Notes: generated by a model not told the origin, from the letters alone. A DNA stretch of 64,000 nt from Candidatus Latescibacterota bacterium (GCA_965222935.1 CBDCVA010000001.1:132093-196092); one strand, 5' to 3'. Positions 7,452-43,742 are shown, counted from the stretch's first letter. Numbers and translations are program-made.

Positions 7452-7461
7452 GGCGATGGAA

Positions 7462-7528: not shown

Positions 7529-7538
7529 GGGGCGAAAG

Positions 7539-8477: not shown

Positions 8478-8528
8478 GATGAAAGGTCTGAGCCTTGGGT
8501 TGGGGTCTGTGGCCTTTCCGGTTCGGCG

Positions 8529-9635
8529 CTACGAGGACATGGGGAGAAGCGTGGCGGGCCGGGGTTCGGATTTCGGGTGCGTCGTGGGGGCGTCACCGTT
8601 CGAGGGACCGTCGCGGCCGTTCCGCCCGCCCGTGACGGCCTGTTGGGCCCATCCGGCGAGCGTGCGCCCCAGGCCCTCCCGACGGTAGATGAGCTCGTAC
8701 TCGCCCCGGCAGTTGTACCAGCACTTGTCGCACGTGTTGGTCGCCTGCGCGTGGTGGAGCCTGCGCAGCAGCTCCTCGGGGGGCGTCGAGAGGATATTGC
8801 CCACGGGCTCGAAGATGGCCTCGACGCACTTGGCCACGTCTCCGCTCTCGTCGATGTTGAGCAGCGAGCGGCCGGCGGTGCAGCCGCTCAGGCCGCCCGC
8901 GAGCGCGTAGTCGTCGAACCGGCGCAGGAAGGCATCGCTGGACGTGAAATTCGAGTAGCGGCGCTTGAGCTCCATCAGGCGCGCGGAGGGGAGGTCCTCA
9001 TGGTTCATCTCGCTCGTCGCACCGATCTTGATGTCGCAGTAGGGCTGGACCATGAAGGACGCGCCCGCCTCCTGCGCCAGTTGGATCAAGGGCTCCATTT
9101 CGTCGAGGTTGTCGCGGGACAGCACGCACATCAGGTTCACGAACTGGCCCTTCTTCGTGCGCTCCTCGCTGAAGATGTGCAGGGCGCGCACGGCGCGCTC
9201 CCATGTGCCCGGCATCCCGCGCAGGGTGTCGTGGGTCTCGCTCTTCACCGAGTCGATGGAGATGCTGATCCCCATGGCTCCGGCCCCGAAGATCGCCCGC
9301 GCTTTCTCGGGTGTGGCGAACCAGCCGTTGGAGGTCAGTGTGACGAAGTGATCGCGCGCGAGGATGGAGACGATGTCGGGCAGGTCCGGCCGTACGAACG
9401 GCTCACCGCCCGCAATGTTGACGATCATCGTGCCGATCTGCGCCAGATTGGCTCCGGCGGTCTCGAACTGTTCGGTGGTCAACTCCCGCGACTTGTCCTG
9501 GCGGAAATCCCAGTAGCCGCAGAAGGTGCAGCGTAGATTGCAGCGGTAGGTCGGCTGCCAAGTGCAGATGAGCGGGCGCCGCTTGGCGTAGGAGACGAGC
9601 GCCTTCGTGGACTTGCGTAACCCGGAGAACCCCAT
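8529..9635 (-). CDS. radical SAM/SPASM-domain protein, substrate unknown
   Basis: CNLRCTFC (CX3CX2C) near the N-terminus. C-terminal Cys cluster …CDKCWYNCRGE… typical of SPASM/twitch auxiliary Fe-S clusters. Confidence 0.7.
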   Translation of the reverse strand: MGFSGLRKSTKALVSYAKRRPLICTWQPTYRCNLRCTFCGYWDFRQDKSRELTTEQFETAGANLAQIGTMIVNIAGGEPFVRPDLPDIVSILARDHFVTLTSNGWFATPEKARAIFGAGAMGISISIDSVKSETHDTLRGMPGTWERAVRALHIFSEERTKKGQFVNLMCVLSRDNLDEMEPLIQLAQEAGASFMVQPYCDIKIGATSEMNHEDLPSARLMELKRRYSNFTSSDAFLRRFDDYALAGGLSGCTAGRSLLNIDESGDVAKCVEAIFEPVGNILSTPPEELLRRLHHAQATNTCDKCWYNCRGEYELIYRREGLGRTLAGWAQQAVTGGRNGRDGPSNGDAPTTHPKSEPRPATLLPMSS

Positions 9636-9856
9636 AGCGGCTTTCCTCGACGGATGCCCGGATCAGATATCGAACCGGGGGCAGCCGACCGGCGTTGTGT
9701 CTGTACCGTACTGCTCGTGGACGTTCGCGTGTGAGACTCAATATCAGTGCATTCGGACGGGAGCGCAACTGCTGCTCGTGGTGGGCCGATTCACCTTGTG
9801 GGTCGTGGAGCGCGCTTGCTTGACCGCATCCGGGGCTCAAAGTATATTACCCGAGC

Positions 9857-11017
9857 GTGAATTCGGTGGGTCACATTTTTGGAGCTTACCCCTTGCAAGA
9901 CCGGCGCTCAGCCCGCCCGCGAGGCTTCGGCTTTGCAGCCGCCTGGGTCTGGCTGATAGCCCTGGGTCTGCTCCTGGGGTGTCCCGCCTCCGCCATCGCT
10001 GACGCTGACGCCGATTCGCTCCTTTACGACGCCTACATCACGCGGATCGAGCAGGATTCTTCGGACGTCGACGCTTTCCTGGGCCTAGCGCGGCTCTTCA
10101 TCAAGTACGATTACTTCGATGACGCCGCACTCGCCTGCCTGTACGCGCGCGATCTCTACCCCGACGATACGGCCTTGCACGTGAAGACGTATCTGCTTCT
10201 GAGCCGTGGTCATGGGGAGAAGGGCTATCTGCGCGAGGCGGTTCAGCATTATGCGGCGGCGCTGGAACTGCGCCCGGACGACGCGGCACTCTTCGCGGAA
10301 CTGGGCGGGCTCTACGAGGAGTACGGCCAGTACGCGGACGCCCTCGAAGCGTACGCGGAGGCGGCGGGGCGCCAATCGAACGTGCGCTACCACACGGCGA
10401 TGGGCCGCATGTACGCGGCGCAGGACCTGTACTTCGAGGCCGTCGGCGAGCTTCGCTACGCTCTGGTGCTGGATTCCACGTACGCCGAGGCGCATCACGC
10501 GCTCGGCGTAGCGTTCTACGAGCGCGAGTTCGTGGATAAGGCGATAGGGGCTTTCGAGGAAGCCATCCGTCTCAAGCCCGGCCTGCCGGAGGCGCGCCAC
10601 GCTCTGGGCCTGGCCTACGAGGACCGCGGGTTCTACGACAAGGCCATCGCCCAACAGAAGCTCGCCCTTAAGCGCTTGGCCCATTGGCCGGAGGTTCACA
10701 ACGATCTGGGGAACGCCTACTTGCGCAAGGCGATGCTCAGACAGAACCAGCGCAGGGAGGTCGATGCGGAATCCCTGCTGAATCAGGCGATCAAGAAATA
10801 TAAGGACGCCCTGGCTTTAGACCCCGAGTTCGCCGAGGTGCACCACAACCTGGGCCTGACCCATTCGCGCGGGGGCCGTTATACGAAGGCGGTCAAGGCT
10901 TACCAGCGCTACCTCGAGCTCAATCCCGGCGCCAAGGACTATCAGCAGGTCAAGGATCGCATCGTCGAGCTCACCGAGAAGCGGACCGCAGGGCCCGACG
11001 GCGCGCCGAAGCGGTAA
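9857..11017 (+). CDS. secreted TPR-repeat protein
   Basis: Signal peptide with a Cys (LLLGCPASA), then multiple 34-aa TPR repeats (…AYxxLGxxYxxxGxYxxAxxxYxxAL…). Confidence 0.7.
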   Translation: MNSVGHIFGAYPLQDRRSARPRGFGFAAAWVWLIALGLLLGCPASAIADADADSLLYDAYITRIEQDSSDVDAFLGLARLFIKYDYFDDAALACLYARDLYPDDTALHVKTYLLLSRGHGEKGYLREAVQHYAAALELRPDDAALFAELGGLYEEYGQYADALEAYAEAAGRQSNVRYHTAMGRMYAAQDLYFEAVGELRYALVLDSTYAEAHHALGVAFYEREFVDKAIGAFEEAIRLKPGLPEARHALGLAYEDRGFYDKAIAQQKLALKRLAHWPEVHNDLGNAYLRKAMLRQNQRREVDAESLLNQAIKKYKDALALDPEFAEVHHNLGLTHSRGGRYTKAVKAYQRYLELNPGAKDYQQVKDRIVELTEKRTAGPDGAPKR

Positions 11018-17365: not shown

Positions 17366-17896
17366 GTGCTCGTCCATCGGCTGGGGGCCGGTGCGGCGGC
17401 CGCGCTCCTGGCTCTCTCGACGGTGGCTCAGTTGGCTTCGGCCCAGGTTGCCGAGAGCGACACCTCCCAAGCCCCCTCGCCGCGCGGAGCCCTTCTGCGC
17501 TCGCTGGCCTTGCCGGGCTGGGGCCAGCTTGCCAACGGTGAACGACTGAAGGCCGCGGCCATCGCGCTGAGCGAGATCGGCCTCACGACGGCAGTCGTCA
17601 TCCAGAACCGGCGCGTCGGGGACGCCTCCGGTGAGCGCAAAGAGAGCCTGCGCGGGAACCGTAACACGCTATTCTTCTGGCTGGTCGGCGCCGTCGTGTA
17701 CAGCGCCCTCGACGCCTACGTGGACGCTCATTTTCGGGATGTACGGTTTCCGGAGGGGGAGGCGACGCTCGAACTGGCGCCCTTCGCGGAGCTCACCCCA
17801 CCGCCGGTTCCCCTCCCCGCAAACGAGTGTGGGGCGCGGGGGACACTGCCCTCGGGCGGGCTCGGGATGGCGTTGGCCCTACGCCTTGGGTTCTAG
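17366..17896 (+). CDS. exported hypothetical protein (LPGWGQ motif, DUF5683-like)
   Basis: GTG start in frame immediately after the ROK stop. Signal peptide, then LALPGWGQL and a predicted TM segment. Confidence 0.4.
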   Translation: MLVHRLGAGAAAALLALSTVAQLASAQVAESDTSQAPSPRGALLRSLALPGWGQLANGERLKAAAIALSEIGLTTAVVIQNRRVGDASGERKESLRGNRNTLFFWLVGAVVYSALDAYVDAHFRDVRFPEGEATLELAPFAELTPPPVPLPANECGARGTLPSGGLGMALALRLGF

Positions 17897-19594
17897 GGTC
17901 TCCGGCGGTGCCTGCGGGAGAAGGCCCGGCTCGACGAAGAGCGTGCGCTCGCGGTGGACGCGCACCTGGCCCGGCGGGGCCTTGCGCGGCTTTTCCACGC
18001 GCCGCGCCTCGGTATAAATGACCGGGGCGGCCTTCGCTCCGCGCGCCTTGCTCCAGTAGGCGGCGAGCGCCGCCGCTTCGGTGATCGAACGTTTACTCGG
18101 CTCACCCTTCGCGCTATCTACCCGTAGCAGTACATGAGAGCCCGGCACGCCTTGCGCGTGGAACCAGAGGTCGTGCCTCGCCGCCAGCCGCAAAGACAGC
18201 GCATCGTTTTCAGCATCGTTGCGGCCCACGAGGACGAGGAAGCCCTCGCTGGTGCGGTACCGGCGCGCCGAGACCCTCGGCGCCGCGCGCGCCGATTTGC
18301 GGCGGGGTGTTGGTGCGGGCCGCTGGGCAGTGGTTTGGGGGACGACCCCGGATGCGTCCACAGGCACCGCCCGCGCTTGTTCCAGAGTGCGTTTCGCTTT
18401 CGCGAGCCGCTCTCGCAGGATGGGCGCTGCCCGCTGGGCCTTTCGGTGGCGCCTGAAGAGCTGCGCCGCGTTCTCCGCTGGCGAGAGATGGGGCAGAAGC
18501 GCAATCCGGATGCTTTGCGCGGAGTCCTCAAAGCTCGGAAGACGGACCTCGGATACGCCGCGTTTCACTTCATGGACATGAGCGAGCAGAAGTTCCGCCT
18601 GCGCCCTCAGGTCCTGCCCATCAATCGCCGCACACAGGTCCGCCTCGATCTTCCCGACGGCGCGCTCTGCCCTGCGGATTCGGGCGCGCCGTAGTGCCCC
18701 AAGGCGGTCGGCGGTGGCCGCCTGGAAAAGGTGAACATCCAGCGTCTCGACCGCTTCGGTGATCGAGGGCGCCCGACGCCTGCGTTCGGCGGGCAGGTGG
18801 TGCAGGTCGAGGATCGTGGCGGCCATAGGCGCGCCGTCCTCGTCGAGCACGACCGTCGGGGGGCCGAGGACGCTCCGGGGTCTGTTGTAAGCCTCAAAGG
18901 CGAGTGCATAGAGCCGTTCGATGGCGGCGTCGGCCAGAGCGCCGTGCGGTGATTCCGCTCCGATGCCCGCTCGATGGGCCAGCTCGCGTCCCAGGAGCTT
19001 TCCAGCGGCGGGCAAGAGGCGCGCGAGCGCCCTTTCGACCGTGGTGGCCGCGACCGATCGCCATGCGGAGATGAAGGCCGCCGGATCGGGCGCATCCATC
19101 GCTCTCCACCCGGGTCCCGGCGGCGGCGCGTAGACCAGGCCCCGAAGGAGCCGCCGGGTGCGTGAGCGCTCACCGGGCACGGGGCGGAGCACGTCCACGA
19201 TGCGGTCCGATGCGTCCAGGAGCAGCGCGTTGGCGCCCCGGGGGAGAAGCTCGACGACCAGCCGCGACGTTGGCTCCCCCTGGCGGCCTTCGGGGACCAG
19301 GTGCACGATGCGATCGGGACCCCGGCGCTCGACACGGGCTATCCGGGTCGGGGCCAGCCGCCCCGATGGCCAGGACCGCCCCTTCGGCAGGCCGGGGGCG
19401 GCGCCTCCCGCACCCGTTTTGCTCGTGAGATAAAGGGCGGGGGCGTTCGGGGCGCAGGAGATGACCAGCCGCGTCTCGCGGTGGCCGAGGAGCTCCAGGC
19501 GCCGGCCGTCGTACGCCCGTGCCTCGCGCACCCGCCAGCCCACAAGGGCCCGCTCAAGCTCGGCGATTAGCGCATCCAGCGTCCAGGTGTCCAT
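17879..19594 (-). CDS. RqcH/Rqc2-family NFACT protein (fibronectin-binding-A-like)
   Basis: N-terminal MDTWTLDALIAELERAL… NFACT-N domain. C-terminal DUF814/NFACT-R (…LWFHAQGVPGSHVLLR…). Only the C-terminal 572 codons of the 1,941-aa ORF look like coding sequence. Confidence 0.75.
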   Translation of the reverse strand: MDTWTLDALIAELERALVGWRVREARAYDGRRLELLGHRETRLVISCAPNAPALYLTSKTGAGGAAPGLPKGRSWPSGRLAPTRIARVERRGPDRIVHLVPEGRQGEPTSRLVVELLPRGANALLLDASDRIVDVLRPVPGERSRTRRLLRGLVYAPPPGPGWRAMDAPDPAAFISAWRSVAATTVERALARLLPAAGKLLGRELAHRAGIGAESPHGALADAAIERLYALAFEAYNRPRSVLGPPTVVLDEDGAPMAATILDLHHLPAERRRRAPSITEAVETLDVHLFQAATADRLGALRRARIRRAERAVGKIEADLCAAIDGQDLRAQAELLLAHVHEVKRGVSEVRLPSFEDSAQSIRIALLPHLSPAENAAQLFRRHRKAQRAAPILRERLAKAKRTLEQARAVPVDASGVVPQTTAQRPAPTPRRKSARAAPRVSARRYRTSEGFLVLVGRNDAENDALSLRLAARHDLWFHAQGVPGSHVLLRVDSAKGEPSKRSITEAAALAAYWSKARGAKAAPVIYTEARRVEKPRKAPPGQVRVHRERTLFVEPGLLPQAPPETLEPKA

Positions 19595-19756
19595 CCATCC
19601 CCCACCGCCCTGATGGGCGCCGTCGCCGGCGGGCCCCAGGGTTTCACGCGCGGAGCATCGTCCGCCTCCGCTCAAGCTGCGTCTTGACAGCGATGATGAG
19701 CGCCCCCAATATGGGGGTCTATCCCGACGAGACTCAAGCGAAGTTTTTCGACGATC

Positions 19757-22700
19757 GTGAGGCATGCACAGCGTCCAATGATGAGCGAGCCACCCTCCAT
19801 CCTGGCTGATTCGGCGCTGGCCTCCGTCATCGAGGCGGTCGTCGCTGCGGAGCCGACCCAGGCGCTTCTGGCCGGCCTCGAACGGGGCGAATCCACGGTG
19901 GCCGTCAAGGGCCTGGCGGGTTCGCTTGCGGCGTGTCTCGGACCGTCGCTCCTGGGGCGAGCGCCCGCGGTGCTGTTCGTCTGCAGTGATGAAGAGGCGG
20001 CCGGTCTGCTGCGCGACGACCTGGAGACGACCTGCGGACCCGAGCGCATCCGGTATTTTCCGCAGCCGGACATCGCCCCCTACGAGCCGCGTTCGCCGCT
20101 TCCCGCCCTGGTGAATATCAGGATCGAGGCGCTCGCAGCCCTGCGCAGCGATCCCCCGGTGGCCGTCGTGACCACCATCGGCGCGGCCACCAGGGCTTTG
20201 ATCCCGCCGTATCTCTTCGACCTGGCCACCCTCGGGCTGCGTGAAGGCGGCGAGGCCGATTTCGGTGAACTGCTGCGCGACCTGGCCGAGCGCGGCTTCG
20301 AGCGGGTGCCCCTGGTCGAGCGGCCGGGCGAGTTCGCCGTGCGCGGCGGGCTCATCGACATCTTCGGGTACGGCGCCCCCGATCCCGTGCGGATCGAGTT
20401 CTTCGGGGACGATGTCGAATCCATCCGCGCTTTTGATGTCTCCACCCAGCGTTCGAAGCACCCTCTCGATGCGGTGACACTGCCGCCGGCGACCGAGGTG
20501 CCCATCGGAGGCTGGCTCGAGGCCGATCAACTCGAGTGGCTCCAAGCACGGGCCGAGGAGGAGGGGCGCTCGCTGGAGCCCTTGATCGAGGCCGTGCGGT
20601 CGGGTCGTCCGCCAGCGGGAATCGAGCACTACGCGGGCGTTCTGGGGGGCGAACGCGCGACCCTTCGGGCCTATCTTCCACGAGACGCCATCGTGCTGCT
20701 CCCCGACCCCGAGGCCCTGAGAGACGAGATCGAGCGAAGGCTTGAGGTCGTGAGGGACGCGTACGCTGCCCGGGCAGCTTCCGGGGAGCTGTGTGTCGCG
20801 CCTCAGTGGGTCGCTCAAAGCTACGAAGAGTTCGCCACCGAGCTCGGGGCACATCGCGTCGTCGAATGCCTGCCTTTCGGTGCGCCCGGAGGTCGCGCAC
20901 CCTTCATCCCCCACGCCTCCGCGCACAAGCAGGGTGGGGGAGATCAAGAAGAGGGCCTTCGAGGGCCCCCGGAGGTCATCGCGTTCGGGGCGCGGAGCCA
21001 GCGCCACTACGAGGGGGACCTTCGGCTCCTGGGGCACGATCTGGCGCAGTTTGCGCAGGAGGGCCTGAGCACGACCGTTCTCGCCGAGACGCGCGGCGCG
21101 GCCGAACGCCTGTCGACCCTTCTGGACGAGCCTTTCGACGTCACCTTCGGTGAGGGAGCGACGCTGTCGGAGGGGTTCGTTTTTCCGGGCGCGGGTCTTG
21201 TTGCGGTCAACGACCATGAGATCTTCACCCGCTTCCGCCGCCTCCGGTCGGTCCGAAAGTTTGCGGAGGGCGCCCCGGTGGCCAGCGTCACGGCGCTGGG
21301 CAGGGGCGATTATGTGGTGCATGTGGACTACGGCATCGGCCGCTTTCTGGGCCTGGAACGCATCTCGATCCTGGGGACGGAGCACGACTGTCTGGCTCTG
21401 CTTTACAGGGATGACGACCGGGTCTTCGTGCCGGTGGAGCAACTGGGCCGCGTTCAAAAGCACACTTCGGGGGACGGCGGCCAGACGCCGGGCCTCTCGA
21501 AGCTGGGGACCGCCTCGTGGGAGCGGATCAAGGAGCGCGCAAAGCAGGGCATCCTGGACATGGCGGAGGAGCTGATCGGCCTCTACGCCGAGCGCAAAAC
21601 CCTGACGCGGCCGGCCTGGGGTCCCGATACGAGCCTTCAGTTCGAGTTCGACGCCGCCTTCCCTTACGAGGAGACGCGCGATCAGGGGCGGACCATCGCC
21701 GAGATCAAGCGCGATCTCGAAAGCGATGCGCCGATGGACAGGCTGGTGTGCGGAGACGTGGGCTACGGGAAGACCGAGGTGGCGATGCGCGCAGCCTTCA
21801 AGGTGGTCACCGAGGGGAAACAGGTCGCGCTGCTCGTCCCCACGACGATCCTGGCTCAGCAGCACTTCACGACCTTCGTGCAGCGCTTCGCGGACTGGCC
21901 GGTGACTGTGGAGATGGTGAGCCGCTTCCGGTCGCCGAAAGAGCAGAGGGAGACCCTCGCCCTGCTGGCCGAGGGGAAAGTGGACATCGTCATCGGCACG
22001 CACCGGCTGCTTTCGAAGGACGTGCGGTTCAAATCCCTGGGGCTCGTGGTCATCGACGAAGAGCACCGCTTCGGCGTCAGGCACAAGGAGAGGCTCAAGC
22101 AGATGCGGCGCCTCGTGGATGTGCTCTCGCTGACCGCCACGCCCATCCCGCGCACGCTGCACATGGGCCTCATGGGGGCGCGCGATATGTCCACCATCAT
22201 GACCCCGCCTCCCGACCGGCTGTCCGTCTACACCGAGGTGATCGGGTTCGACGAGGGGAAGATCGCCGAGGCGATCCTGCGGGAGATCGACCGGGAGGGC
22301 CAGGTCTACTTCGTTCACAACCGCGTGCAAACGATCGAGAAGATGGCGGCCCGGCTCGAAGAGCTCCTGCCCCAGGTTCGTTTCGCCATCGCCCACGGCC
22401 AGATGTCCGAGCGCGACCTGGAGCGGGTCATGCTGCGGTTCCTCGATGGCGACTACGACTGCCTGGTGGCGTCGGTGATCATCGAGGCGGGCCTGGATAT
22501 CCCCAACGCCAACACCCTGATCGTCAACCGCGCCGACCGGTTCGGCCTCGCCCAACTCTACCAGCTTCGGGGCCGCGTCGGCCGTTCCGACCGGCGCGCC
22601 TACGCTTATTTCGTCGTGCCGCCCCGTCGTTCGCTCCCGCGCCCGGCGCGGCGAAGGCTGCGCGCCATCGAGGAGTTCTGCGAGTTGGGCTCGGGGCTGG

Positions 22701-23341
22701 GCCTCGCCATGCGGGACCTGGAGATCCGCGGCGCGGGCAACATCCTGGGGGCCCAGCAGCACGGCTTCATCGCCCAGATCGGGTTTCACCTCTACACGCG
22801 GCTTCTGGACGAAGCGGTCATGGAGCTTCGCGGTCAAAAGCCAAAGCAGGAGCGTGAGCCCGAGATGCGCCTGGGGGCGAGCGGCTTCCTGCCCGATGCC
22901 TACGTGTCCGACCCCGATCAGAAGTTCTTGCTCTACGCGCGGCTGGCCGATTCGCACGATGCCGAGGCCGTCCGGGCCCTCACTGAAGAGGTGATCGATC
23001 GCTACGGCCGGATGCCGCCCGAGGCGCGGGCTCTGTTCGACGCCGCGGGCTGCCGCGCCGCAGCGATGGAGCTTGGCGCGGCCGAGGTGCATCTTGGCCA
23101 AGGCGTTCTCAGCCTGGGCTTCCCGACCGATGGGGAGCTCTCCCGCGAATGGGCCGAGGACCTGGTGCGGCGTTCGCCCGTGCCGCTGGAGTTCGATGTC
23201 GGGGGGCGGGCTTCCGATGGCGCGGAGGGCAGCATTCGAGTGCGCGCACGGCTCGCGGAGTCCGAGGGGGCCACCGAACTCGAAGCGGCAGCCGCCACCT
23301 TGAATGCCCTGGCCCAGGGGGAGGTACTCGCGGGGGTTTAG
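19757..23341 (+). CDS. mfd: transcription-repair coupling factor
   Basis: UvrB-homology N-terminus, RNAP-interacting domain, DEAD/DExH helicase motifs (GDVGYGKTEVA, DEEHRFG) and TRCF C-domain. About 1,190 aa. Confidence 0.95.
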   Translation: MRHAQRPMMSEPPSILADSALASVIEAVVAAEPTQALLAGLERGESTVAVKGLAGSLAACLGPSLLGRAPAVLFVCSDEEAAGLLRDDLETTCGPERIRYFPQPDIAPYEPRSPLPALVNIRIEALAALRSDPPVAVVTTIGAATRALIPPYLFDLATLGLREGGEADFGELLRDLAERGFERVPLVERPGEFAVRGGLIDIFGYGAPDPVRIEFFGDDVESIRAFDVSTQRSKHPLDAVTLPPATEVPIGGWLEADQLEWLQARAEEEGRSLEPLIEAVRSGRPPAGIEHYAGVLGGERATLRAYLPRDAIVLLPDPEALRDEIERRLEVVRDAYAARAASGELCVAPQWVAQSYEEFATELGAHRVVECLPFGAPGGRAPFIPHASAHKQGGGDQEEGLRGPPEVIAFGARSQRHYEGDLRLLGHDLAQFAQEGLSTTVLAETRGAAERLSTLLDEPFDVTFGEGATLSEGFVFPGAGLVAVNDHEIFTRFRRLRSVRKFAEGAPVASVTALGRGDYVVHVDYGIGRFLGLERISILGTEHDCLALLYRDDDRVFVPVEQLGRVQKHTSGDGGQTPGLSKLGTASWERIKERAKQGILDMAEELIGLYAERKTLTRPAWGPDTSLQFEFDAAFPYEETRDQGRTIAEIKRDLESDAPMDRLVCGDVGYGKTEVAMRAAFKVVTEGKQVALLVPTTILAQQHFTTFVQRFADWPVTVEMVSRFRSPKEQRETLALLAEGKVDIVIGTHRLLSKDVRFKSLGLVVIDEEHRFGVRHKERLKQMRRLVDVLSLTATPIPRTLHMGLMGARDMSTIMTPPPDRLSVYTEVIGFDEGKIAEAILREIDREGQVYFVHNRVQTIEKMAARLEELLPQVRFAIAHGQMSERDLERVMLRFLDGDYDCLVASVIIEAGLDIPNANTLIVNRADRFGLAQLYQLRGRVGRSDRRAYAYFVVPPRRSLPRPARRRLRAIEEFCELGSGLGLAMRDLEIRGAGNILGAQQHGFIAQIGFHLYTRLLDEAVMELRGQKPKQEREPEMRLGASGFLPDAYVSDPDQKFLLYARLADSHDAEAVRALTEEVIDRYGRMPPEARALFDAAGCRAAAMELGAAEVHLGQGVLSLGFPTDGELSREWAEDLVRRSPVPLEFDVGGRASDGAEGSIRVRARLAESEGATELEAAAATLNALAQGEVLAGV

Positions 23342-23856
23342 CGCTATTCCCGTCGGATGACCGCCGCCGCTTCGCCCTTCGCAGCCATGAGGCGTCCGTC
23401 TCAACGGGGCACTCGGGGGCATCGGCCTATCCGAACCTTCACCGGTGGGGCAGCACGCCGCCTTCGCTCGATCCGCGAACAGCCGGACCTCGGTGGCGGT
23501 GCCGCCACTTGGGCCTTGCTTCACGCGCCCCTCTCTGATACTTTGGGCGGTGCGGTGTACCGCCTGGGGATGGCGTTCCCGGCAGCCGCTCTCGACGAGG
23601 GCGGTCAAAAGAGGCATGATGAGGTCGATGGGGATACCGCACGAGATGACGGGAACGATGGCGGCCAAGGGAGCGTCTCCTTTCTCCGGTCTGCCGTTGG
23701 TCATGCTCGGAGCCGAAGATAAGCAATTGACGGCGTTCTGTCAGTGCCGCTTTTGTGACACTAAGGGGAGGATGGCCAGGCGTCCGCGAGCTCGCTCGCC
23801 CCTCGAAGGGGGACGGGCCCGTGACCGCGCCTGGAACTTTCTGGAAAGGGTGTAGC

Positions 23857-27013: not shown

Positions 27014-27823
27014 GTGAGCGTCGTGAAGGATAGGGCGGTGCGGCCCGCCCCTCCCGAGGCCCTTGAGGTGGCGCCTTATTCCACCCTGGCGGCCATCTAC
27101 GATCATGTCATGCGCCACGTGGATTACGTCGCGTGGTGCGATTACGTTGAGCGCATCTGGCGTCGGTTCGGCGCCCGCCCCCAGACCGTGCTGGACCTGG
27201 CCTGTGGCACGGGCACCCTCGCCCTGGAGCTCGCCCGCCGCGGCTACCAGCTCACCGGTGCGGACGGCGCGGGGGCCATGCTCGACGAGGCGCGCCGCAA
27301 GGCTGCGCGGGCTGAGGGAGGCCGTCAGGTGGTCTGGCGTCGGGCTGATCTCGAGGCTCCGGGAGGGATCGGCAGGTTCGACGCGGTCCTTTGTCTTTAT
27401 GACAGCCTGAACTACCTGACCTCGGCGGAGGCCCTGCGCGCGGCCCTGGGGGAGATGCTGCGGTTGACGGCTCCCGAAGGGCTGGTCATCCTGGACGTCT
27501 GCACCGTTCGCAACTCGCTGGTCCACTTCGATGGGCGGTCCGACCGCGATGAGGGCGGGGGCTTTACGTACGAAAGATGCTCCCGGTTCGACCGGACGTC
27601 TTCGCTCCAGTACAACACCTTCACCATCCGGGTCGGGGACGAGCGGCGAGTGCGCGAGCGCCACGTCCAGCGCATTTACCACCTGGATGAGATCAAGGCC
27701 CAGATCGCCGCTCTGCCCTGTACACTCGAAGGCGCTTTCGGTGACTTCTCGTTCCGCAGCGCCTCCGAGGGGGCCCATCGGGTGCACTACGTGCTCCGTT
27801 CCAAGGACCGGGAGCCATGCTGA
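27014..27823 (+). CDS. class I SAM-dependent methyltransferase
   Basis: VLDLACGTG motif I, acidic loop after beta2, DSLNY motif. Confidence 0.7.
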   Translation: MSVVKDRAVRPAPPEALEVAPYSTLAAIYDHVMRHVDYVAWCDYVERIWRRFGARPQTVLDLACGTGTLALELARRGYQLTGADGAGAMLDEARRKAARAEGGRQVVWRRADLEAPGGIGRFDAVLCLYDSLNYLTSAEALRAALGEMLRLTAPEGLVILDVCTVRNSLVHFDGRSDRDEGGGFTYERCSRFDRTSSLQYNTFTIRVGDERRVRERHVQRIYHLDEIKAQIAALPCTLEGAFGDFSFRSASEGAHRVHYVLRSKDREPC

Positions 27824-28578
27824 GCTTCGATGACGTCTGGCTGAGCGATCGGCGAGGTCCGATCTTCAGGGCCCTCTCCTTTCACGTCAGTGCGGGCGAC
27901 CGGGTCGCCTTCGCCTCGGGGAATGGCTCTACGCGCGATGCGGCCACGAGCCTCTCTCTGTGCGAGCTGCGCCCCAATTCGGGTTGTGTCCGGACGCTCG
28001 GGCGCGACATGTCGGCTCTCTCACGGGCCGAGCGAACCGTGCTCCGCAGGCGAATCGGCCTTGCGCGCGCCGACGTGCCGCTCGTGGCCGAATGGAGCGT
28101 GGAGGAAAACTTCCGGCTGGTGCTCAAGCTGCGCGGCCTGCCCCCGGAGCGGGCCTTACGCGAGGCGCGGCGAGCGGCGGGACGGCTGGGGATCGCGGGG
28201 GCCGCGTACCGAAGCTCGCGTGATCTGAGCGAGGAACAGTGCGTTCTCGCCGAGCTCGCCCGGGCGACGCTGGGTCCGCCGCCGCTTGTGTTGATCGCGC
28301 ATCCGCTCGATGTCCTGCGAGCGAACGAACGGGAGATAGCGCACGAGCTTTTGGCTGAAGCGGCGGCGTGGGGTGCGGCGGTGGTCCTGACGCGCGTCGA
28401 GCGCTTCGCCCGGTGGGATGCGCGGCCCATTTGGCTTGGGGCGGGTGGTGCGGGCGGCGGCGTTCGCAGTTTGGCCGGGGCCGGCCATCCTTCGACCTTT
28501 GGGCGGATTCAAGACGGCGCAAGCTCCCGATGGCGACCCGGTGCGGGCCGTGAGCTTGTCGAGAGGTCTACAGGCTAA
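27817..28578 (+). CDS. FtsE-like ABC ATPase homolog with degenerate catalytic motifs
   Basis: ABC fold retained, but Walker A reads SGNGST (no Lys), the signature is LSEEQC rather than LSGGQ, and Walker B is …LIAHP… with no DE pair. Confidence 0.6.
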   Translation: MLSFDDVWLSDRRGPIFRALSFHVSAGDRVAFASGNGSTRDAATSLSLCELRPNSGCVRTLGRDMSALSRAERTVLRRRIGLARADVPLVAEWSVEENFRLVLKLRGLPPERALREARRAAGRLGIAGAAYRSSRDLSEEQCVLAELARATLGPPPLVLIAHPLDVLRANEREIAHELLAEAAAWGAAVVLTRVERFARWDARPIWLGAGGAGGGVRSLAGAGHPSTFGRIQDGASSRWRPGAGRELVERSTG

Positions 28579-28622
28579 GATGACGACGATGCGATTGAGC
28601 GCACCGGGCAGAGAGCGTTGAC

Positions 28623-29465
28623 ATGGCCCTTGTGATGCGATGGATCGGGCGGCTCGCTTTTGGGTCCGGGCCGATCGTGGTGGTTTTCGCTGCTCTGGCT
28701 GGCGCCTACGGGCTGGAGGTGGCTCAGGTGTCGCGTGGGGCCGAATTGCGCCGGCGCTGCGAGGGTGTCCGGCTCGAAGCCTTTCTCGCACCGGGGTTCT
28801 CCAAGACGCGAAGCGATGAGCTTGTCGCAGCGCTCGACCGTCTTGAAGGGGTGAGCGCCGTCGAATACATCGGACAGGAGAGCGCCCGGGAGGCGTTTGT
28901 CGCCCTGTTCGGGGAGGGATTGCTGGATCCCCGCGCGCCCAATCCGCTTCCACCGTCGGTGGTGGTGCAGCCGGAGTTGAACTGGGTGACCTCCGAGCGC
29001 GTCGCGCAGCTCGCGACGCAGCTCTCGGACCTCGAAGGCGTCGAAGCCGTGGACTATCCCGCGGCATGGCTCGCGACGGTGGACGCCGAAGCGAGGTGGA
29101 GCAGTCGGACGCTACGCGGTGCATGGGTGGGTGCGGCGTTGGCTCTCGTGATGGCCACAACGCTCGTGGTCTGGCGACGTACCACGCGCCGCGCGACGGG
29201 CCTGCGTACGCTTCGGATGGCGGGAGTGCCGCTCTGGTGGTGCGGCCTGGGCGCCCTGGCCGGTGCGCTGGGAAGCGCCATCGTTGCCGCAACGCTCTTT
29301 CTCGGATTACGGATCGGGTTGGTCGAACCCTTCCTGGCCGGGGTCTGGCCCGGTGTCGTCTTCCCAGACGGGGCCTCCGGGGCCTCCCTGTGCGCGTTCG
29401 GAGCGGGTGGCGTTCTGACCTTGACGTGGGTCGCGCTGGTCCGCGCGCTCAGGAGCGCACCATGA
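28623..29465 (+). CDS. FtsX-like permease
   Basis: TM1, large periplasmic loop, three C-terminal TM helices. Adjacent to the FtsE-like gene. Confidence 0.65.
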   Translation: MALVMRWIGRLAFGSGPIVVVFAALAGAYGLEVAQVSRGAELRRRCEGVRLEAFLAPGFSKTRSDELVAALDRLEGVSAVEYIGQESAREAFVALFGEGLLDPRAPNPLPPSVVVQPELNWVTSERVAQLATQLSDLEGVEAVDYPAAWLATVDAEARWSSRTLRGAWVGAALALVMATTLVVWRRTTRRATGLRTLRMAGVPLWWCGLGALAGALGSAIVAATLFLGLRIGLVEPFLAGVWPGVVFPDGASGASLCAFGAGGVLTLTWVALVRALRSAP

Positions 29466-30650
29466 GGCGGCTCCGGTGGCTTGTGCCAGTCCTCCTCGCA
29501 CTCAGTGCGTCTGGAGGCACCCTCGCCCTGGCGGAGCCGGGGGATCTCGCGGCCCAGCGCGCGGAGCTCGAGGCCATCGAAGCGGAGCTTGAAGCGGCGC
29601 GCTCGCGTGCATCGGAACTCGCGGGGCAGGAGCGGAAACTTGGGCGGCGGACGGGCAAGCTGGCGAACGAGATCAAGGCCACCGCGCGTGTCATCCGCCG
29701 CCTTGATAACCGGCGCAAGGCGTTGGACCGGCGCCTTGCGCGCACGAAAAGCCGCCTTGCGCACACGACGCGGGACTTCAAGCGGTGGCTTGGGAGCTAC
29801 GTCGATGGGTTGCGCACCCTCTATCGCCGCGTTCGGGTCTACGCCAGGGATGCTATGGCCGGTCCTGTGGAGTACCAGCGCGCCGCGCGAGGGCGACGAT
29901 ACCTCATTGCAATTGCGGCGCAGGATCGTGCTGCGCTGGAGGGGACGCGCAACCGACTGGCCGCGCTGAAGCGGGATAGCCGATCCCTGACCCGCGAGCG
30001 GCGCCGTACGGCTAAGGCCGTCAAGGTGAAGGCAGTGACGCGCTCACGCCTGAAGCGCGACCATCAGGTCACCAGGCAGGAGCTGGCGTCCGTTGCCAGC
30101 GAGCGAGCCCTCTCCGAGGCGTCCCTCGAGGAGCTGGAATCCGCGCGAGCCGAGGCGGAAGCTCGCCTCATGGAGTACATCGCGGGTTTCCAGCGCGACG
30201 AGCGGGCCTCGCGCCGACGCCCCGATCTTCACCTGGCGCCCCCGCCGGAGGGGTACGGAACGTTCGCCCAGCGGCGTGGGAGGCTGGCCTGGCCTGCGTT
30301 CGGGCAGGTCATAGGGCGGTTCGGTCGCACGCGCGACCCGGAATCGGGGACATGGACATTCAACCGCGGCGTCGATCTCGCCGTCGCCCCCGGAACCTCG
30401 GTTCGGGCCATCGGACCGGGCCATGTCATTCTGCGCAACTGGTTTCGGGGATATGGCAGCTTCGTTCTGATCCACCACGGCGCGGGCTACTTCACGCTGT
30501 ATGCGGGTCTCAGCCGGGTTCTGGGTCGCCGAGGGCGATGCCGTAGAGGGCGGGGCGCCGATCGGCGTGTGCGACGACATGCTGCACGTGGAGGTCCTGC
30601 ACGATCAGGAACCGCTGGACCCCGTGTCGTGGCTGGGGGCAGCCCGATGA
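29462..30650 (+). CDS. EnvC-like coiled-coil protein with a degenerate LytM/M23 domain, reading frame broken by a +1 shift
   Basis: Signal peptide, then long coiled coil, then an M23 domain with HxxxD replaced by NRGVD and HLH replaced by GL. The M23 C-terminus (…LVAEGDAVEGGAPIGVCDDMLHVEVLHDQEPLDPVSWL) continues in the +1 frame from about 30525, with an extra G in the GGG run at 30523-30525. Confidence 0.6.
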
Positions 30651-32287
30651 TGAGGGTCCGGGGCCTCATCGCCTGCCTTCTGCTCGCCTGCGGCGGACCC
30701 TCGGGCGGGCCGCCGGAAGTCCTCTTTCGCGTGCGGCTCAGTGCCGACCCACCCTCGCTCGATCCGATTCACGCCGCTGACGCGATCTCAGGGGCGGTGG
30801 TGCACCATCTCTTCGACGGTCTGGTCGCCGCCGATCCCGCCACCGGTGCGGTCCAGCCCGCTTTGGCGGAGAGGTTCGAGCCTCTTGAGAGCGGCCGCGC
30901 CTGGCGCTTTCATCTGAGGCCGGATGTCCGCTTTCATCATGGCCGGCGGGTGACGGCCGAGGACGTCCGCTTCTCCTTTGAGCGCGTCCTAGATCCCGAG
31001 AGCCAGTGCGAGCGCCCGTGGGTGCTGACCCCCCTGAGAGGCGCCTCGGCTTTCCGGGAAGGCCGCGCCGACCGGGTCGCCGGCATCCGCGTCGAGGACG
31101 AGCGCACCGTGGTGCTCGAGATCGAGGAGCCCTTCACACCTTTCCTCGCCCAACTCACCATGGCACCGGCCAGCATCGTCCCCCGCGAGCTCGTGGCGCG
31201 CGATCCACAAGCCTTCTCGGCCGCGCCTGTGGGCTCGGGTCCCTTTCGTTTCGTTCGCTGGGCTCGGGATGTCGAGATCGAGCTTGAGGCGTTCGACGGC
31301 GCGTGGGACGGGCGGCCGGGGATCGACCGCCTGCGCTTCGTCATCCTGCCCAACGTGAATGTCGCGTACCAGGCCTTTCGCGCGGGAGAGATCGAGCTCC
31401 TGAACCAGTTGCCCACGGGCGCCTTGAGCGAAGCGCGGCGCGAGCGCCCCCAAGGCCTGAGGGTATGGACGGTTCTCTCGACGCGCTACCTGGGGATGAA
31501 CCTGGCCGGTCCGCCCTTCAGCGACAACCGGCCATTGAGACAGGCCCTGAATTACGCGGTCAACCGCGAGGCGCTCTGCCGCGACGTCCTCCAGAATCTG
31601 GCCGAGCCGGCTTCGGGCGTTGTGCCCTCCGCGCTCTTACCCGTGCGACCCGAAGGCTACGCCTACGACCCCGATCGTGCCCGGACGCTCCTGGTCCAAG
31701 CGGGTTTCCCCGAGGGGGAAGGCTTGCCGGAGCTGGAGCTCTGGTACAATGCGAGCCAGGAAGAAGCCCGCATCTGGCAGGTGGTCGCCTCCGATCTGGC
31801 AGCCATCGGCGTCCACACGCGGCTTGTGGCCCTCGAATGGGGCGCTTTTCTATCAGCCATTCGCGCTGGGCGGGCACCGCTTTTCCGAGGGAGCTGGGTC
31901 GGGGACTACACCGACCCGCACAACTTCCTCTTCGTTCTGCTCCACAGCGGCAATGCGGGTCCTGATGGCAACTACGCGCGTTTCGGTGATCCGGAGTTCG
32001 ACCGGCTGGTGGAGGCGGCGGGTTCCGAATCCGACCCGGTGCGGCGGCGCGAGCTTTACGTTAAGGCGGAGGCCAGAGCGGTGGCCGAGGCGCCCTGGGT
32101 CTTCCTCTTTCATCCCAGGGATGAAGTGCTGATCGCGCCGGGCTGGGCTGAGCTGGAGCTATCCATCCTGGGCGACTGGGCCATACCCCTCGAACGCGTG
32201 CGTGCCTCGGCGGAAGCTCAAAAAGACGCCTTTGAACCCCAGTCGAGCGAAGCGGGGAGAGCGCGAGATGAAGCGGGAGGTCAGTGA
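30647..32287 (+). CDS. ABC transporter substrate-binding lipoprotein, family 5 (Opp/Dpp-like)
   Basis: Lipobox LLLACGG, SBP_bac_5 fold. Paralog of the 61364-62950 gene. ATGA start/stop overlap with the upstream gene. Confidence 0.8.
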   Translation: MMRVRGLIACLLLACGGPSGGPPEVLFRVRLSADPPSLDPIHAADAISGAVVHHLFDGLVAADPATGAVQPALAERFEPLESGRAWRFHLRPDVRFHHGRRVTAEDVRFSFERVLDPESQCERPWVLTPLRGASAFREGRADRVAGIRVEDERTVVLEIEEPFTPFLAQLTMAPASIVPRELVARDPQAFSAAPVGSGPFRFVRWARDVEIELEAFDGAWDGRPGIDRLRFVILPNVNVAYQAFRAGEIELLNQLPTGALSEARRERPQGLRVWTVLSTRYLGMNLAGPPFSDNRPLRQALNYAVNREALCRDVLQNLAEPASGVVPSALLPVRPEGYAYDPDRARTLLVQAGFPEGEGLPELELWYNASQEEARIWQVVASDLAAIGVHTRLVALEWGAFLSAIRAGRAPLFRGSWVGDYTDPHNFLFVLLHSGNAGPDGNYARFGDPEFDRLVEAAGSESDPVRRRELYVKAEARAVAEAPWVFLFHPRDEVLIAPGWAELELSILGDWAIPLERVRASAEAQKDAFEPQSSEAGRARDEAGGQ

Positions 32288-40424: not shown

Positions 40425-43400
40425 TCAGGGCTGGGCTTCCTGCGCGGCACGTCCGGCTCCCTTCAGCAGACCGGACCTCTGGCGCTGCGGCGCCGGTGGC
40501 TTTCGCATCGCGTCGGGCGCGTCGGGCAGTTCATCGGCCCCGAAGCAGGGACCGGAGATGACGGCGTCCAGGAGCCTCGCCTGTTCTGGATAACCCGTTA
40601 GAGTCGCCTCCAGCACCCAGAGCAGTTCGAGCAGCTCCGTCGTGAACTGGCTCGTCCAGCGCTCGGGGCGAGTGTCGTCCAGCGGCGAGGATTTCCTGCC
40701 CGCGCCCCTCTTCATCCGGTACTTGAGCCACGACCGCACCACCTTGAGGCCCGAGACCTCGAACTCGAAGACTTCCGGGGCGACGGGCTCGAACGCGCCC
40801 TCGCCCACATGGAGCGTTCGCGTCCCGTCGTTATAGTCGAATGCTTCGGGGTAGCCATCGGGATCGCCGGGGACGGGCTTGACGCACCTGGCCGCGCCGC
40901 GCGGGACGCGGCTTCGCTGTTCGCCCTCGGGGACGAAGCGCTCGCCGTACGTGTGGAGATGCAGCAGACGCGCGCCCGCGCTTCGCACCGCCTCGAACAG
41001 GGTGGCGTCCTTCGTGATAGGAACGCGCAACTCGCGCGACCCCAGTTCCTTCGCATAGCGGGCGGTGAAGGCCGGCTGCGCCAGCGCGCCGTAGATGTAG
41101 GCCAGGATATCCTCCGGCGTCACCTTGCGCTCGTAGGCCGCGCCGAGCAGGTCGAGCAGGCCGGGGAGGACGTTGACCTCCGTCGCGTCGGCGGTGCGGT
41201 AGAGGGGTATAGAGCTTCCAGCACGACCTGAGAAATAGTTACGGTCGGGAATGAAGGCGCAGGCGGTTAGACTTGGCCCACCCGATATTGCCTGTGTGAG
41301 AATCGTCGTCAGATATATCTGTCTCTCGCCGTGAGCGCGCCATAGATCGGGGCGGAGAAGGTCGCCCAGCCTGCTGTCGGCGAACATCCACTGCCGGTCG
41401 AATGAACGATACGCGTAACGCTCGATGCGGGGAATCGCAGCGTTACGGGGCAACTGATCAAGAGGCGCCTCGGCCTCTTCGCCATCCTTGAGCGGCGGGT
41501 ACTTGCGTGCTGTTTTGCGGTCGCGCGTTTCTTTGAAGGCGGCGGCCCTGTCCGCGGAGGCCAACAGCGTGCGCCAACGCGCCGCCAATGTTTCGGGATC
41601 GGGGCAAATCGGCCAAGTTCGTTGAAACTGAACGCCTGAATGTTGCCACGGCATGAGGTCGCTCAGAAGAGGCAAGTCGAAATAGTCGCCCACCCCCGCC
41701 GGGCGGAAGGGGGCCTGCCAGTCATCGGGGCAGTCCTCCCAATCGACCGATGCAAACCCGTAGATCGCATCAAGCGCCGCGAGCTTGTCACCGCGCGTTC
41801 CCTCGATGCGGGCATAGTGAACGGCGGCGGGCTCAGTCTCTCTCGCTTCACCATATCGTACGGCTACGGCGATAGCCACCGGGGTAAGGATGGCGAAGAC
41901 GTTGTCGCTCTTGCGCGAACCGCGCCCCTCTCCGCCGAGGTCGATGATCCAGATTTGGTCGCACAGGCGGCGCATGTGTTCACGCATCCCGCTAAAAGCG
42001 TCGCCATCGAGGTAGCTCGACGCGCTGATGAAGCTGACGACGCCCGGCCCCGAGGCCTTCGCGTGCTCGAAGACCTTCCACAGCGCCTAGCGCCAGAAGT
42101 AGACGTAAAGGTTGTAGAGGTTTCTGACGTCGCCGCCGTGTCCGGCCTTGACGGCGGGGTCCCGGAAATCGCCGAAGATCGCGTGTGAGGGCCCGCCGTC
42201 GTCGTCCCAGCGGACCCAGCCGCCGGTGAGGGCCCTGTTGTCGCCGCTGGCGGTCTCGTGGCGGTCGTAGGGCGGGTTGCCCACGCAGACGATCACGGGG
42301 ACCTCGCTCTTGACCTGGAGCGCCCTGGTGTGCTGCTCGGCGATGGGTTCGAGGTAGAAAGACAGCGCGAGCGGTTGAGCGTGGGGGCTTTCGAGCGTGT
42401 CGGTCAGGTAGACGTGCGTGCCGTCCTGGGGGAGCGACGCGCCACGATCGCGCAGGGCGCGGCTGACGCGCAGTTCGGTCACGGCGTAGGGGCCGACCAT
42501 ATGCTCGAAGCCGTAGAGGTTGGCGGCCAGCGCGGTGGCCTTGCCCGGCACGGCTCCCGGACCCTGCTCGTCCTCGACCCGGCTGAGGGCGTGCTCGATG
42601 ACGCCGAGGAGGTAGGTTCCCGTGCCGGAAGCCGGATCGAGCGTGACGACGTCGGGATCGGCGAATCCCAGGGGCCTGCTGATGCGGTTCACGAGCAGAT
42701 CGTCAATGAGGCGGACCTGGGCGCGGACGACCTCGACGGGGGTGTAGTAGACCCCGGCATCCTTACGCAGCCTGGGGTCGTAGGCGGCGAGAAAGTCCTC
42801 GTAGAAATAAAGCCAGGGGTCCTCGGGGGCCCTGAGCGAATCGGTCGGGACCTCGGCGACCACGCGCATGAGCAGATCGAGGGAGGCGGAGATTTCGGCC
42901 CGAGCTCTGGGGTCGGTCAGGACCTGAAGGGCGCGCGCGAGCAGGTTGTGCTCAGCGGCCAGGGCCGTTTCGGCGTGGGGGAGGGTCAGCGGGTTGGCCC
43001 CCTCGCTGCGGGCCAGCAGCAGGGCGAAAGTGACGGTTTGCGCGTAGGCATCGGCGAACTGCTCGTCGCGCGCGTCCGGGAAAAGGAGCTGCCGCCAGTC
43101 CCTTGCGAGTTGGACGAGGGGCGATTGCGGTTCGCGGAGGGCGTCGGTGACATCGTCGCGGAGCAGGCGGCACAACGGTGCGAGCAGGCGGGCGAAGCCC
43201 TCGAGATCGAGGCGGCCCTCGCGGTCGTAGGGCAGAATGGGATTCCATGAGAAGAAATCGCGCAACAGACGTTCCACCGCGCCCGCGTCTTCGAGGGCGG
43301 CGGCCTTCTTGCCGTCGGAGGCGATGTCGCCACGGAGATGGACGATCCTGCCCACCGGCTTGCCATCGCGATAGAGCGCCCATTCGTTGCCGTCCGTGTA

Positions 43401-43742
43401 GAGGAGGTTGGGGATGGCCGAGAAGCGCTTCCACTGATCGCGGTTGTGGCCGGTGAAGCGCCTGGCATTGACTCCGACTCCGGGGGCCTTGAGCTCGACG
43501 TAACCCGCGAGCAGGCCGTTGAGATGGGCGGCAAAATCGGGGCGGCCCAGGCGGTCGGGGAGCCTGGCCTCGCCCGTGCAGACGGCGTTCCAGCCGAGGG
43601 CGCGGGCGGCGTCAGCCATGAGGTTCTCGAAGGGGCCGCGCAACTGGTCTTCGGGCGCGCCCTGGGTCAGTTGCGTCATCTTGGCCGTGACCGCCTGGCC
43701 GAAGGACTCCAAAGCCTTGTGTATCAGGTTGTTGGGCATCAT
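40425..43742 (-). pseudogene. MmeI-like single-chain type IIL/IIG restriction-modification enzyme (PD-ExK nuclease + N6-adenine MTase + TRD) interrupted by one in-frame TAG
   Basis: N-terminal …RPDFAAHLNGLLAGYVELKAPG… (D-x-ExK like MmeI). MTase motif I DPASGTGTYL and motif IV VGNPPYD. The frame is continuous across the TAG at 42087-42089 (…NLYVYFWR*ALWKVFEHAKASGPGVVSFISASSYLDGDAFSGMREH…), giving about 1,105 codons. Confidence 0.7.

Follow-up and report, generated by a model that had tools for sequence, protein, structure and literature searches.

The closest described relatives of the system reported here are the FtsEX-EnvC complexes of Escherichia coli, Pseudomonas aeruginosa and Vibrio cholerae (8hd0, 8w6j, 8i6o/8i6r and 8tzk). 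In a dimer of ATP-binding cassette (ABC) nucleotide-binding domains (NBDs), the signature is the second of the two motifs that hold ATP. The nucleotide lies in a sandwich, with the P-loop of one monomer on one side and a motif of the second monomer on the opposite side (PMC11627006). In the systems characterised so far, EnvC activation is described as driven by ATP binding to FtsE (PMC12505981, PMC7668044); ATP binding closes the FtsE NBD dimer and hydrolysis resets the system (PMC7668044; PMC12505981, PMC10214136). Likewise, the models of FtsEX in E. coli, P. aeruginosa, V. cholerae, Mycobacterium tuberculosis and Streptococcus pneumoniae centre on ATP binding and hydrolysis by FtsE (PMC12505981, PMC10214136, PMC7668044, PMC11627006). 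A stretch of 64,000 nucleotides from Candidatus Latescibacterota bacterium (GCA_965222935.1, CBDCVA010000001.1:132093-196092), hereafter the window, with positions counted from its first letter, encodes the same three components adjacently, and all the ATP-site motifs of its FtsE-like protein are degenerate. This is a known system, FtsEX-EnvC, in a new form with a pseudo-ATPase FtsE. The preferred reading, to which a probability of roughly 0.65 is given, is that the FtsE-like protein is a selectively maintained pseudo-ATPase that serves as a non-catalytic structural or adaptor subunit, keeping FtsX and EnvC assembled. Judging from the sequences, the FtsEX-EnvC machine is probably kept here without ATP.

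The locus resembles the described FtsEX-EnvC systems in the NBD fold of FtsE, in the X-lobe of FtsX, and in the coiled coil, restraining-arm region and degenerate LytM domain of EnvC. It differs from them in that the FtsE-like protein is without the Walker A Lys and Ser, the Q-loop Gln, the LSGGE signature, the Walker B Asp-Glu pair and the switch His. In addition, the FtsX-like protein has nearly no N-terminal cytoplasmic segment and its transmembrane (TM) domain does not match PF02687, ftsY is not adjacent, and the genes of a methyltransferase and of an SBP_bac_5 lipoprotein are translationally coupled to the module. An initial annotation of the window had placed an FtsEX-EnvC-type cluster at 27817-30650, in the order ftsE-like, ftsX-like and envC-like. 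The order and the coordinates are borne out, and the best sequence or structure matches of all three proteins are FtsE, FtsX and EnvC chains.

The FtsE-like protein matches the ABC_tran family (PF00005) with 31 bits. Its best NCBIfam model is that of FtsE (TIGR02673) with 56.3 bits, below the equivalog cut-off of 264.85 bits, the next family scoring 38 bits. The top four sequence matches in the PDB are FtsE, the best being chains of 8i6r and 8hd0 from the P. aeruginosa and E. coli FtsEX-EnvC complexes (E values of about 1e-10 to 1e-9); NBD chains of TM288 are found among the weaker matches. The AlphaFold2 model has a mean predicted local distance difference test score (pLDDT) of 80.5, with values of about 92 over residues 1-209 and a disordered stretch from 210 to 253. 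When this model was compared by Foldseek, the top five matches were FtsE chains, the best being E. coli FtsE (8hd0_A, TM-score 0.84). The RecA-like and helical subdomains of the NBD fold are retained in the model.

The ATP-site motifs were read from a HMMER alignment to the FtsE sequences of the PDB, from a single-sequence hidden Markov model of E. coli FtsE, and from a joint MAFFT alignment of the protein and three canonical FtsE; FtsE of E. coli and of P. aeruginosa is among the canonical references. In each of the three alignments, five motifs depart from the canonical form (Table 1). Arg40 stands at the position of the Walker A lysine, Ala161-His162 replace the Walker B Asp-Glu pair, and the signature reads LSEEQ, so that the three losses claimed in the initial annotation (the Walker A lysine, the Walker B acidic pair and LSGGQ) are real and the motif register it had used agrees with bona fide FtsE. 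At the Walker A loop, HMMER adds a one-residue gap and MAFFT aligns the sequences gap-free. The A-loop aromatic residue is also gone in the MAFFT alignment. The signature is LTEEV in P0002, an intact ortholog of about 60% identity from the L002 lineage with the same dead motifs, and the family pattern can be written D-L-[ST]-[ED]-E. The Walker B pair is AH in the window and GL in the L002 lineage (LVLIGL in P0002), and because the two lineages differ there these positions are free to vary. R40 and D41 do not vary within the family, with R-E at the same place in P0032, a short fragment of a third lineage (L094; 38-43% identical over 110 residues) that is also without Walker A.

The distribution of conserved residues was measured against the 60%-identical lineage. 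The least conserved segments of the FtsE-like protein are the former catalytic ones, with identities of 47% (P-loop), 50% (signature) and 40% (Walker B/D-loop), and the positions neighbouring R40-D41 and the acidic signature pair vary. The best-conserved blocks are residues 76-101 (85% identical) and 146-160 (93% identical). In S. pneumoniae FtsE, regions R2, R3 and R4 give shape to the cavity that receives the coupling helix of FtsX (PMC7468199), and block 76-101 is the counterpart of the Q-loop region R3 together with the edges of R2 and R4 (PMC7468199). On the FtsX side, the X-lobe, which is the EnvC-binding element of E. coli FtsX (PMC7668044), has a 22-residue equivalent with R104 as its single variable position in comparison with the 63%-identical lineage, the other 21 being invariant. 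Because the coupling cavity and the X-lobe are conserved and the catalytic segments are not, selection appears to have moved off the ATP site, the protein-protein interfaces between FtsE, FtsX and EnvC being preserved rather than the nucleotide site.

The FtsX-like protein matches FtsX_ECD (PF18075) with 44.7 bits (cut-off 23.5) over profile positions 2-96 of 96. The best NCBIfam model is FtsX_Gneg (TIGR00439) with 59.2 bits, below the equivalog cut-off of 255, and the best PDB matches are FtsX chains. The layout consists of a very short N-terminus, TM1, the periplasmic FtsX_ECD, TM2, a short cytoplasmic coupling segment, TM3 and TM4. The AlphaFold2 model has a mean pLDDT of 56.6 and is usable for the FtsX_ECD alone, which matches the periplasmic domain of E. 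coli FtsX (6tpi_B/C) with TM-scores of 0.79-0.82. Long helices are modelled at residues 17-47, 147-190, 204-227 and 254-277, all with pLDDT below 50; the top Foldseek matches of the whole model are still full-length FtsX chains. A word-based homolog search with this protein returned two proteins, both of the same clade.

The EnvC-like protein was compared by means of an intact ortholog (L005:4646-5833). Residues 40-392 cover positions 31-384 of the 385 of profile NF008644, with a score of 60 bits, below the equivalog cut-off of 270, and residues 7-392 align end to end with E. coli EnvC (8hd0_E residues 12-418, E = 5e-18). The catalytic motifs of M23/LytM peptidases are HxxxD and HxH. Here the first is replaced by N-R-G-V-D and the second by M-L-H, and the middle His is a Gly (YAGLS). 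The LytM domain is thus read as degenerate, with most catalytic residues gone, and the alignment and the motifs agree with the earlier description of the third gene product as a coiled-coil protein with a degenerate LytM domain. A region aligning with the restraining arm of E. coli EnvC seems to be retained. In the window, envC is frameshifted by an extra G (GGG at 30523-30525 versus GG in L005, L001 and L003). The Logan contig L005 is 99.985% identical over 6.7 kb, the extra G being the sole difference. Past the frameshift, the M23 C-terminus continues in another frame while the long open reading frame (ORF) runs into the SBP_bac_5 gene, and the gene call of the source assembly is a 941-aa EnvC::SBP5 fusion (P0206). 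The gene is intact in L005, L001 and L003, where it encodes 395 or 396 aa, and also in L099 and L100, and other low-coverage long-read contigs from the same population carry different frameshifts in ftsX or envC. The frameshift is most likely a consensus error and not biology.

A working model can be drawn from these features. The FtsE-like protein would keep the NBD fold and the surface cavity for the coupling helix of FtsX, having lost both halves of the ATP sandwich, that is, the face made of Walker A, Q-loop, Walker B and H-loop and the face made of signature and D-loop. It would lie beneath a divergent FtsX, whose periplasmic X-lobe would hold the EnvC-type amidase activator with its dead LytM domain. 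No complete ATP site could form in a homodimer or in a heterodimer with a canonical NBD, so that the module would be unable to run the mechanotransmission cycle of the E. coli and P. aeruginosa FtsEX-EnvC. Two ways of working had been envisaged in the initial annotation, as a scaffold or powered by another ATPase. The former fits better, the coupling cavity being best conserved. The latter is disfavoured in the form of a heterodimer because the Walker A/B half and the signature half have both been lost, and the argument from ABC dimers makes such powering unlikely. As a subunit, the FtsE-like protein would lend stability to the FtsX dimer, connect it with cytoplasmic partners and hold EnvC in place. 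EnvC would then be activated by non-ATP means, the candidates being closure of the FtsE dimer, constitutive or induced by a partner, and recruitment alone.

The gene might be regarded instead as a decaying relic, a pseudogene on its way out in a module that no longer functions, since every catalytic motif is lost, the C-terminal 48 residues evolve almost neutrally (dN/dS, the ratio of nonsynonymous to synonymous substitution rates, of 0.79) and envC is frameshifted in the window. The tail is moreover absent from the L002 lineage, P0002 ending at residue 215, and carries a 4-residue deletion in P0024. Decay is nevertheless very improbable. The ORF is intact in eight of eight contigs (the window, L001, L002, L003, L004, L005, L099 and L100), and intact orthologs of 91-92% identity that keep the dead motifs are found on a 4.2-Mb contig (P0001) and a 1.42-Mb contig (P0024). 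Over residues 1-205, dN/dS was estimated by the Nei-Gojobori method with 95% bootstrap intervals. It amounts to 0.20 (0.09-0.42) against L001 and 0.36 (0.25-0.50) against L002, with dS of about 0.77, so that the upper bounds do not exceed 0.50; these values lie in a range similar to those of the neighbouring genes (0.16-0.46 against L001) and of FtsX (0.28 against L002). The same motif states are met at this distance, the AlphaFold2 fold is confident, and the envC frameshift comes down to a single homopolymer base that is absent from a nearly identical short-read assembly. The ftsE-like gene is therefore under purifying selection and is not a pseudogene. Because the motif loss is conserved and purifying selection acts on the gene, the comparison of sequences speaks for a protein that functions without being an enzyme, not for a wreck. 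The source assemblies consist of long-read contigs in which indel errors are visible, and sequencing errors or mis-registered motifs could have mimicked a dead ATPase, an explanation that has next to no chance of being right. An identical 253-aa protein is encoded in ENA long-read contigs, in a Logan assembly and in JGI metagenomes. Mis-registration was rejected, as the three alignment methods agree on the motif positions and none of the other frames recovers GKS/T or DE; within residues 1-205 the ORF is unbroken and resembles FtsE as a homolog all along.

Several points weigh against the preferred reading. That the FtsE-like protein neither binds nor hydrolyses ATP is deduced from its sequence. 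The transmembrane part of the FtsX-like protein gave no PF02687 match at E ≤ 0.01 and was modelled with low confidence. The retained restraining-arm region of EnvC suggests that a conformational trigger is still needed, which a passive scaffold would leave unexplained, and the conserved R40/D41 and acidic signature pair could reflect a new ligand or a new contact, not mere decay. The absence of a second FtsE-like ABC ATPase (tblastn, two FtsE queries) applies to the 64-kb window. Lastly, a canonical ftsEX elsewhere in the genome may run septal amidase activation, leaving the dead-FtsE module as an accessory that might act as a passive EnvC tether, as a regulator of another hydrolase, or together with the co-transcribed peptide-binding lipoprotein. 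Such a specialised paralog would be compatible with a pseudo-ATPase FtsE and would change what the pseudo-ATPase means. It is suggested by the scores of all three proteins, far below the NCBIfam equivalog cut-offs (56 versus 265, 59 versus 255 and 60 versus 270 bits), by the unusual coupling to an SBP_bac_5 gene, and by the lineage-specific position of the cluster, contig L091 having no ftsEX after the methyltransferase gene. It is rather unlikely, as most bacteria carry a single ftsEX, an EnvC, the canonical partner of FtsEX, comes with the module, and its FtsX keeps the EnvC-binding X-lobe. The two FtsE queries detected no second ABC ATPase in the 64 kb by tblastn, and, as a weaker argument, among the best 8,000 candidates of a protein search none of the 14 proteins with E ≤ 0.001 is on the large contigs of the clade, the ortholog aside. 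A remodelled site that binds something else, or that mimics the ATP-bound state, is less probable still. A non-canonical nucleotide or a second messenger could be the ligand of R40-D41 and the acidic signature pair; alternatively, these residues could form inter-subunit salt bridges in place of ATP, the FtsE-like dimer being locked closed or closed by a partner and mechanotransmission proceeding without hydrolysis. The invariance of R40/D41 and the conservation of D-L-[ST]-[ED]-E between lineages, with R-E in the third and varying neighbouring positions, speak for such a switch, as do the restraining-arm region of EnvC and a protein from another lineage, P0027 (see below), that looks like a bind-but-not-hydrolyse stage. 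On the other side, the P-loop has lost a glycine in addition to the Lys and Ser/Thr, the A-loop aromatic residue is gone, and the P-loop and signature segments are among the least conserved. A bolder proposal, which can only be held as doubtful, is that FtsEX-EnvC works here without any ATP as the sole FtsEX of the cell, protein contacts closing the FtsE dimer, and that this evolved more than once. Closure of the dimer would be constitutive or brought about by a divisome partner, pairing of R40/D41 with the acidic signature pair being one candidate contact, and P0027 as well as two further proteins, P0033 and P0037, all from independent lineages, would represent the same loss at an earlier stage or in parallel.

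The features of the locus are collected in Table 1. Five tightly packed genes on the plus strand fill positions 27014-32287 of the window. The stop of the methyltransferase gene overlaps the start of the ftsE-like gene by 7 nt, the junction being CCATGCTGA, and the same overlap is found in L001 and L099 and in L094, a distant fragment. The ftsX-like gene starts 45 nt past the ftsE-like stop codon, in an order that is identical in all orthologous loci, and ATGA overlaps are present at both the ftsX/envC and the envC/SBP_bac_5 junctions. The five genes form one translationally coupled operon with overlapping stop and start codons.

Table 1. Coordinates of the genes and sequence elements of the locus in the window
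Feature	Position	Strand	Remarks
SAM (S-adenosylmethionine)-dependent methyltransferase gene	27014..27823	+	Methyltransf_25/11/12 matches; upstream operon member
ftsE-like gene (FtsE-derived ABC NBD protein, 253 aa)	27817..28578	+	All ATP-site motifs degenerate
Degenerate Walker A, S34-G-N-G-S-T-R40-D41	27916..27939	+	Canonical GHSGAGKS; Lys->Arg40, Ser/Thr->Asp41, last Gly->Thr39
Former Q-loop, Gln->Ala85 (GLARAD), in residues 76-101, LRRRIGLARADVPLVAEWSVEENFRL	28042..28119	+	With the adjoining cavity for the FtsX coupling helix
Degenerate ABC signature, LSEEQ (L137-S-E-E-Q141)	28225..28239	+	E. coli LSGGE
Degenerate Walker B, LVLIAHP	28285..28305	+	E. coli LLADEP; Asp->Ala161, catalytic Glu->His162
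Former H-loop/switch region, T-R-V	28390..28398	+	E. coli ATHD; switch His gone
C-terminal tail, residues 206-253	28432..28575	+	Gly/Arg/Ser-rich, predicted disordered, pLDDT ~30
ftsX-like gene, 280 aa	28623..29465	+	PF18075, 44.7 bits
X-lobe equivalent, F92-V113, FVALFGEGLLDPRAPNPLPPSV	28896..28961	+	Aligns with E. coli FtsX residues ~145-171
envC-like gene (signal peptide, long coiled coil, restraining-arm region, degenerate LytM)	29462..30650	+	PF01551
SBP_bac_5 (DppA/OppA-type) lipoprotein gene	30647..32287	+	PF00496, 282 bits

The SBP_bac_5 gene keeps its position in all the orthologous loci that reach that far (L001, L005, L099 and L100); its orthologs lie at 12830-14455 in L001 and 12818-14443 in L099. 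Sharing a transcript with an amidase activator, such a peptide-binding protein might, in the manner of MppA, take murein peptides as ligands. ORFs of OppB/OppC-type permeases are present at 59487-61290 on the minus strand, of which the Pfam scan covered the OppC-type one (59487-60398), and no ATPase is visible for them in the window. The ftsY gene, encoding an SRP54-type GTPase, is at 7539-8477 on the minus strand, about 20 kb from ftsE-ftsX and opposite to them; the classical ftsY-ftsE-ftsX arrangement is absent at the locus. Elsewhere in the window, adjacent minus-strand ORFs at 40425-43742 with Type_ISP_C (520 aa) and N6_Mtase (551 aa) domains resemble a Type ISP/IIG restriction-modification enzyme that is split or incomplete, perhaps through an indel artefact. 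A 1941-aa open frame at 17879-23704 on the minus strand, antisense to mfd (19757-23341, plus strand), is a typical shadow ORF of high-GC DNA and not a gene.

The sequence covered comprises the 64-kb window and orthologous loci of about 20 kb. Within the window, tblastn searches for a canonical ftsE with E. coli FtsE and the canonical P0003 matched the ftsE-like gene only, and Pfam scans of 39 further ORFs returned neither an ABC ATPase nor an amidase. A word-indexed search of 5.8 billion proteins, in which the best 8,000 candidates by words common with the FtsE-like protein were scored, gave 14 proteins at E ≤ 0.001; these were same-clade proteins followed by generic ABC ATPases of at most 33% identity. 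When 1.84 billion cluster representatives were searched exhaustively with a HMMER profile, a single 50% cluster came up at 403 bits, the next match scoring 95 bits. Scans of GTDB and JGI contigs detected no further members of the family, and a scan of JGI metagenomes with the alignment of the FtsE-like protein detected canonical FtsE (L086) and ABC-2 ATPases only. In the literature, mostly outside subscription journals and including a 2024 review of FtsEX (PMC11627006), no report of a natural FtsE without ATP-site motifs was found.

The neighbouring mfd gene was used to place the host. A GTDB scan with Mfd found no close relative, the best being at most 54% identical and from Methylomirabilota; the Mfd-SurA pairing recurs at those loci, with no ftsEX downstream. 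In metagenomes, the nearest Mfd relatives are 42-49% identical over most of the protein, and those with a name belong to metagenome-assembled genomes of Zixibacteria, Eisenbacteria, Krumholzibacteria and Gemmatimonadota. Because the nearest relatives are this distant, the host is tentatively regarded as an uncultured, deep-branching lineage. Among the contigs with the nearest Mfd relatives (L090, L091 and L092), the 47%-identical outgroup L091 keeps the order Mfd-PpiC-SurA-(S4)-methyltransferase at 4302-10905, with DHH, OTCase and OmpA genes after the methyltransferase in place of ftsEX-envC. As the methyltransferase gene of L091 has no ftsEX after it, the place of the cluster after this gene is clade-specific.

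Many of the top 150 profile matches of the FtsE-like protein have degenerate motifs themselves. P0027 belongs to an ftsE-ftsX-M23 cluster of an unrelated lineage (L097 3886-6435, JGI Ga0451423_080173; the same protein is in GCA_030591465.1, L098). Its best NCBIfam model is FtsE (148 versus 104 bits), and it keeps Walker A with Q->L, LSDGE, DE->EL and H->E replacements, so that it has the appearance of an ATP-binding form incapable of hydrolysis. FtsE is also the best NCBIfam model of P0037 (L093 515-1709) and P0033 (L095 1749-2877); all five motifs are dead in P0037, and Walker A alone is kept in P0033. The membrane proteins encoded after them resemble, by eye, the N-terminus of FtsX and the start of its FtsX_ECD, and gave no Pfam or NCBIfam match. 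From these sequences, degeneration of FtsE beside ftsX seems to have occurred in more than one lineage. P0047 (L096 2141-3423), with all motifs degenerate, was rejected as an FtsE, being MlaF-like and encoded directly after an MlaE permease gene; it indicates that NBDs without motifs also occur in ABC systems other than classical transporters.

ATPase-dead E. coli FtsE variants (K41M/Q, D162N and E163Q) were reportedly engineered by Arends 2009, Yang 2011 and Du 2016, and the structures 8w6j and 8i6r are those of E163Q FtsE. The dead E. coli variants still assemble with FtsX, localise and support divisome assembly. These mutants have one residue changed and mostly bind ATP; they stop constriction or the activation of amidases and are deleterious. 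Hydrolysis would be lost in both cases; unlike the mutants, the FtsE-like protein has all its motifs gone, which makes ATP binding implausible, and it is evolutionarily stable. Natural non-catalytic sites with structural or regulatory roles are known from heterodimeric ABC proteins such as TM287/288 and CFTR NBD1, as here. There, one of the two composite sites is lost, Walker A and ATP binding are kept and the other site is active, whereas here both halves are lost and no complete composite site is left. The activators EnvC, NlpD and DipM with degenerate LytM domains are pseudo-peptidases (PMC11627006), pseudoenzymes kept as regulatory or structural parts. The EnvC of this locus is alike, and the pseudoenzyme principle reaches here to the cytoplasmic 'motor' subunit as well. 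A precedent for a cell-separation hydrolase controlled without FtsEX is RipA of Corynebacteriales (PMC9897464). In that case a different system acts, whereas here the FtsEX-EnvC hardware is kept and the ATP site is lost.

A natural, selectively maintained FtsE without an ATP site, paired with FtsX and EnvC, amounts to a ready-made separation-of-function allele. It isolates the ATP-independent roles of FtsEX, such as assembly, anchoring or partner binding, and raises the question of what releases EnvC when there is no motor. The FtsEX-EnvC module with its pseudo-ATPase FtsE is evolutionarily maintained in this clade, and other lineages may have similar cases. If the degenerate FtsE of those lineages hold up, the loss of the FtsE ATPase would be recurrent in evolution, and the automatic annotation 'cell division ATP-binding protein' would be wrong for such proteins.

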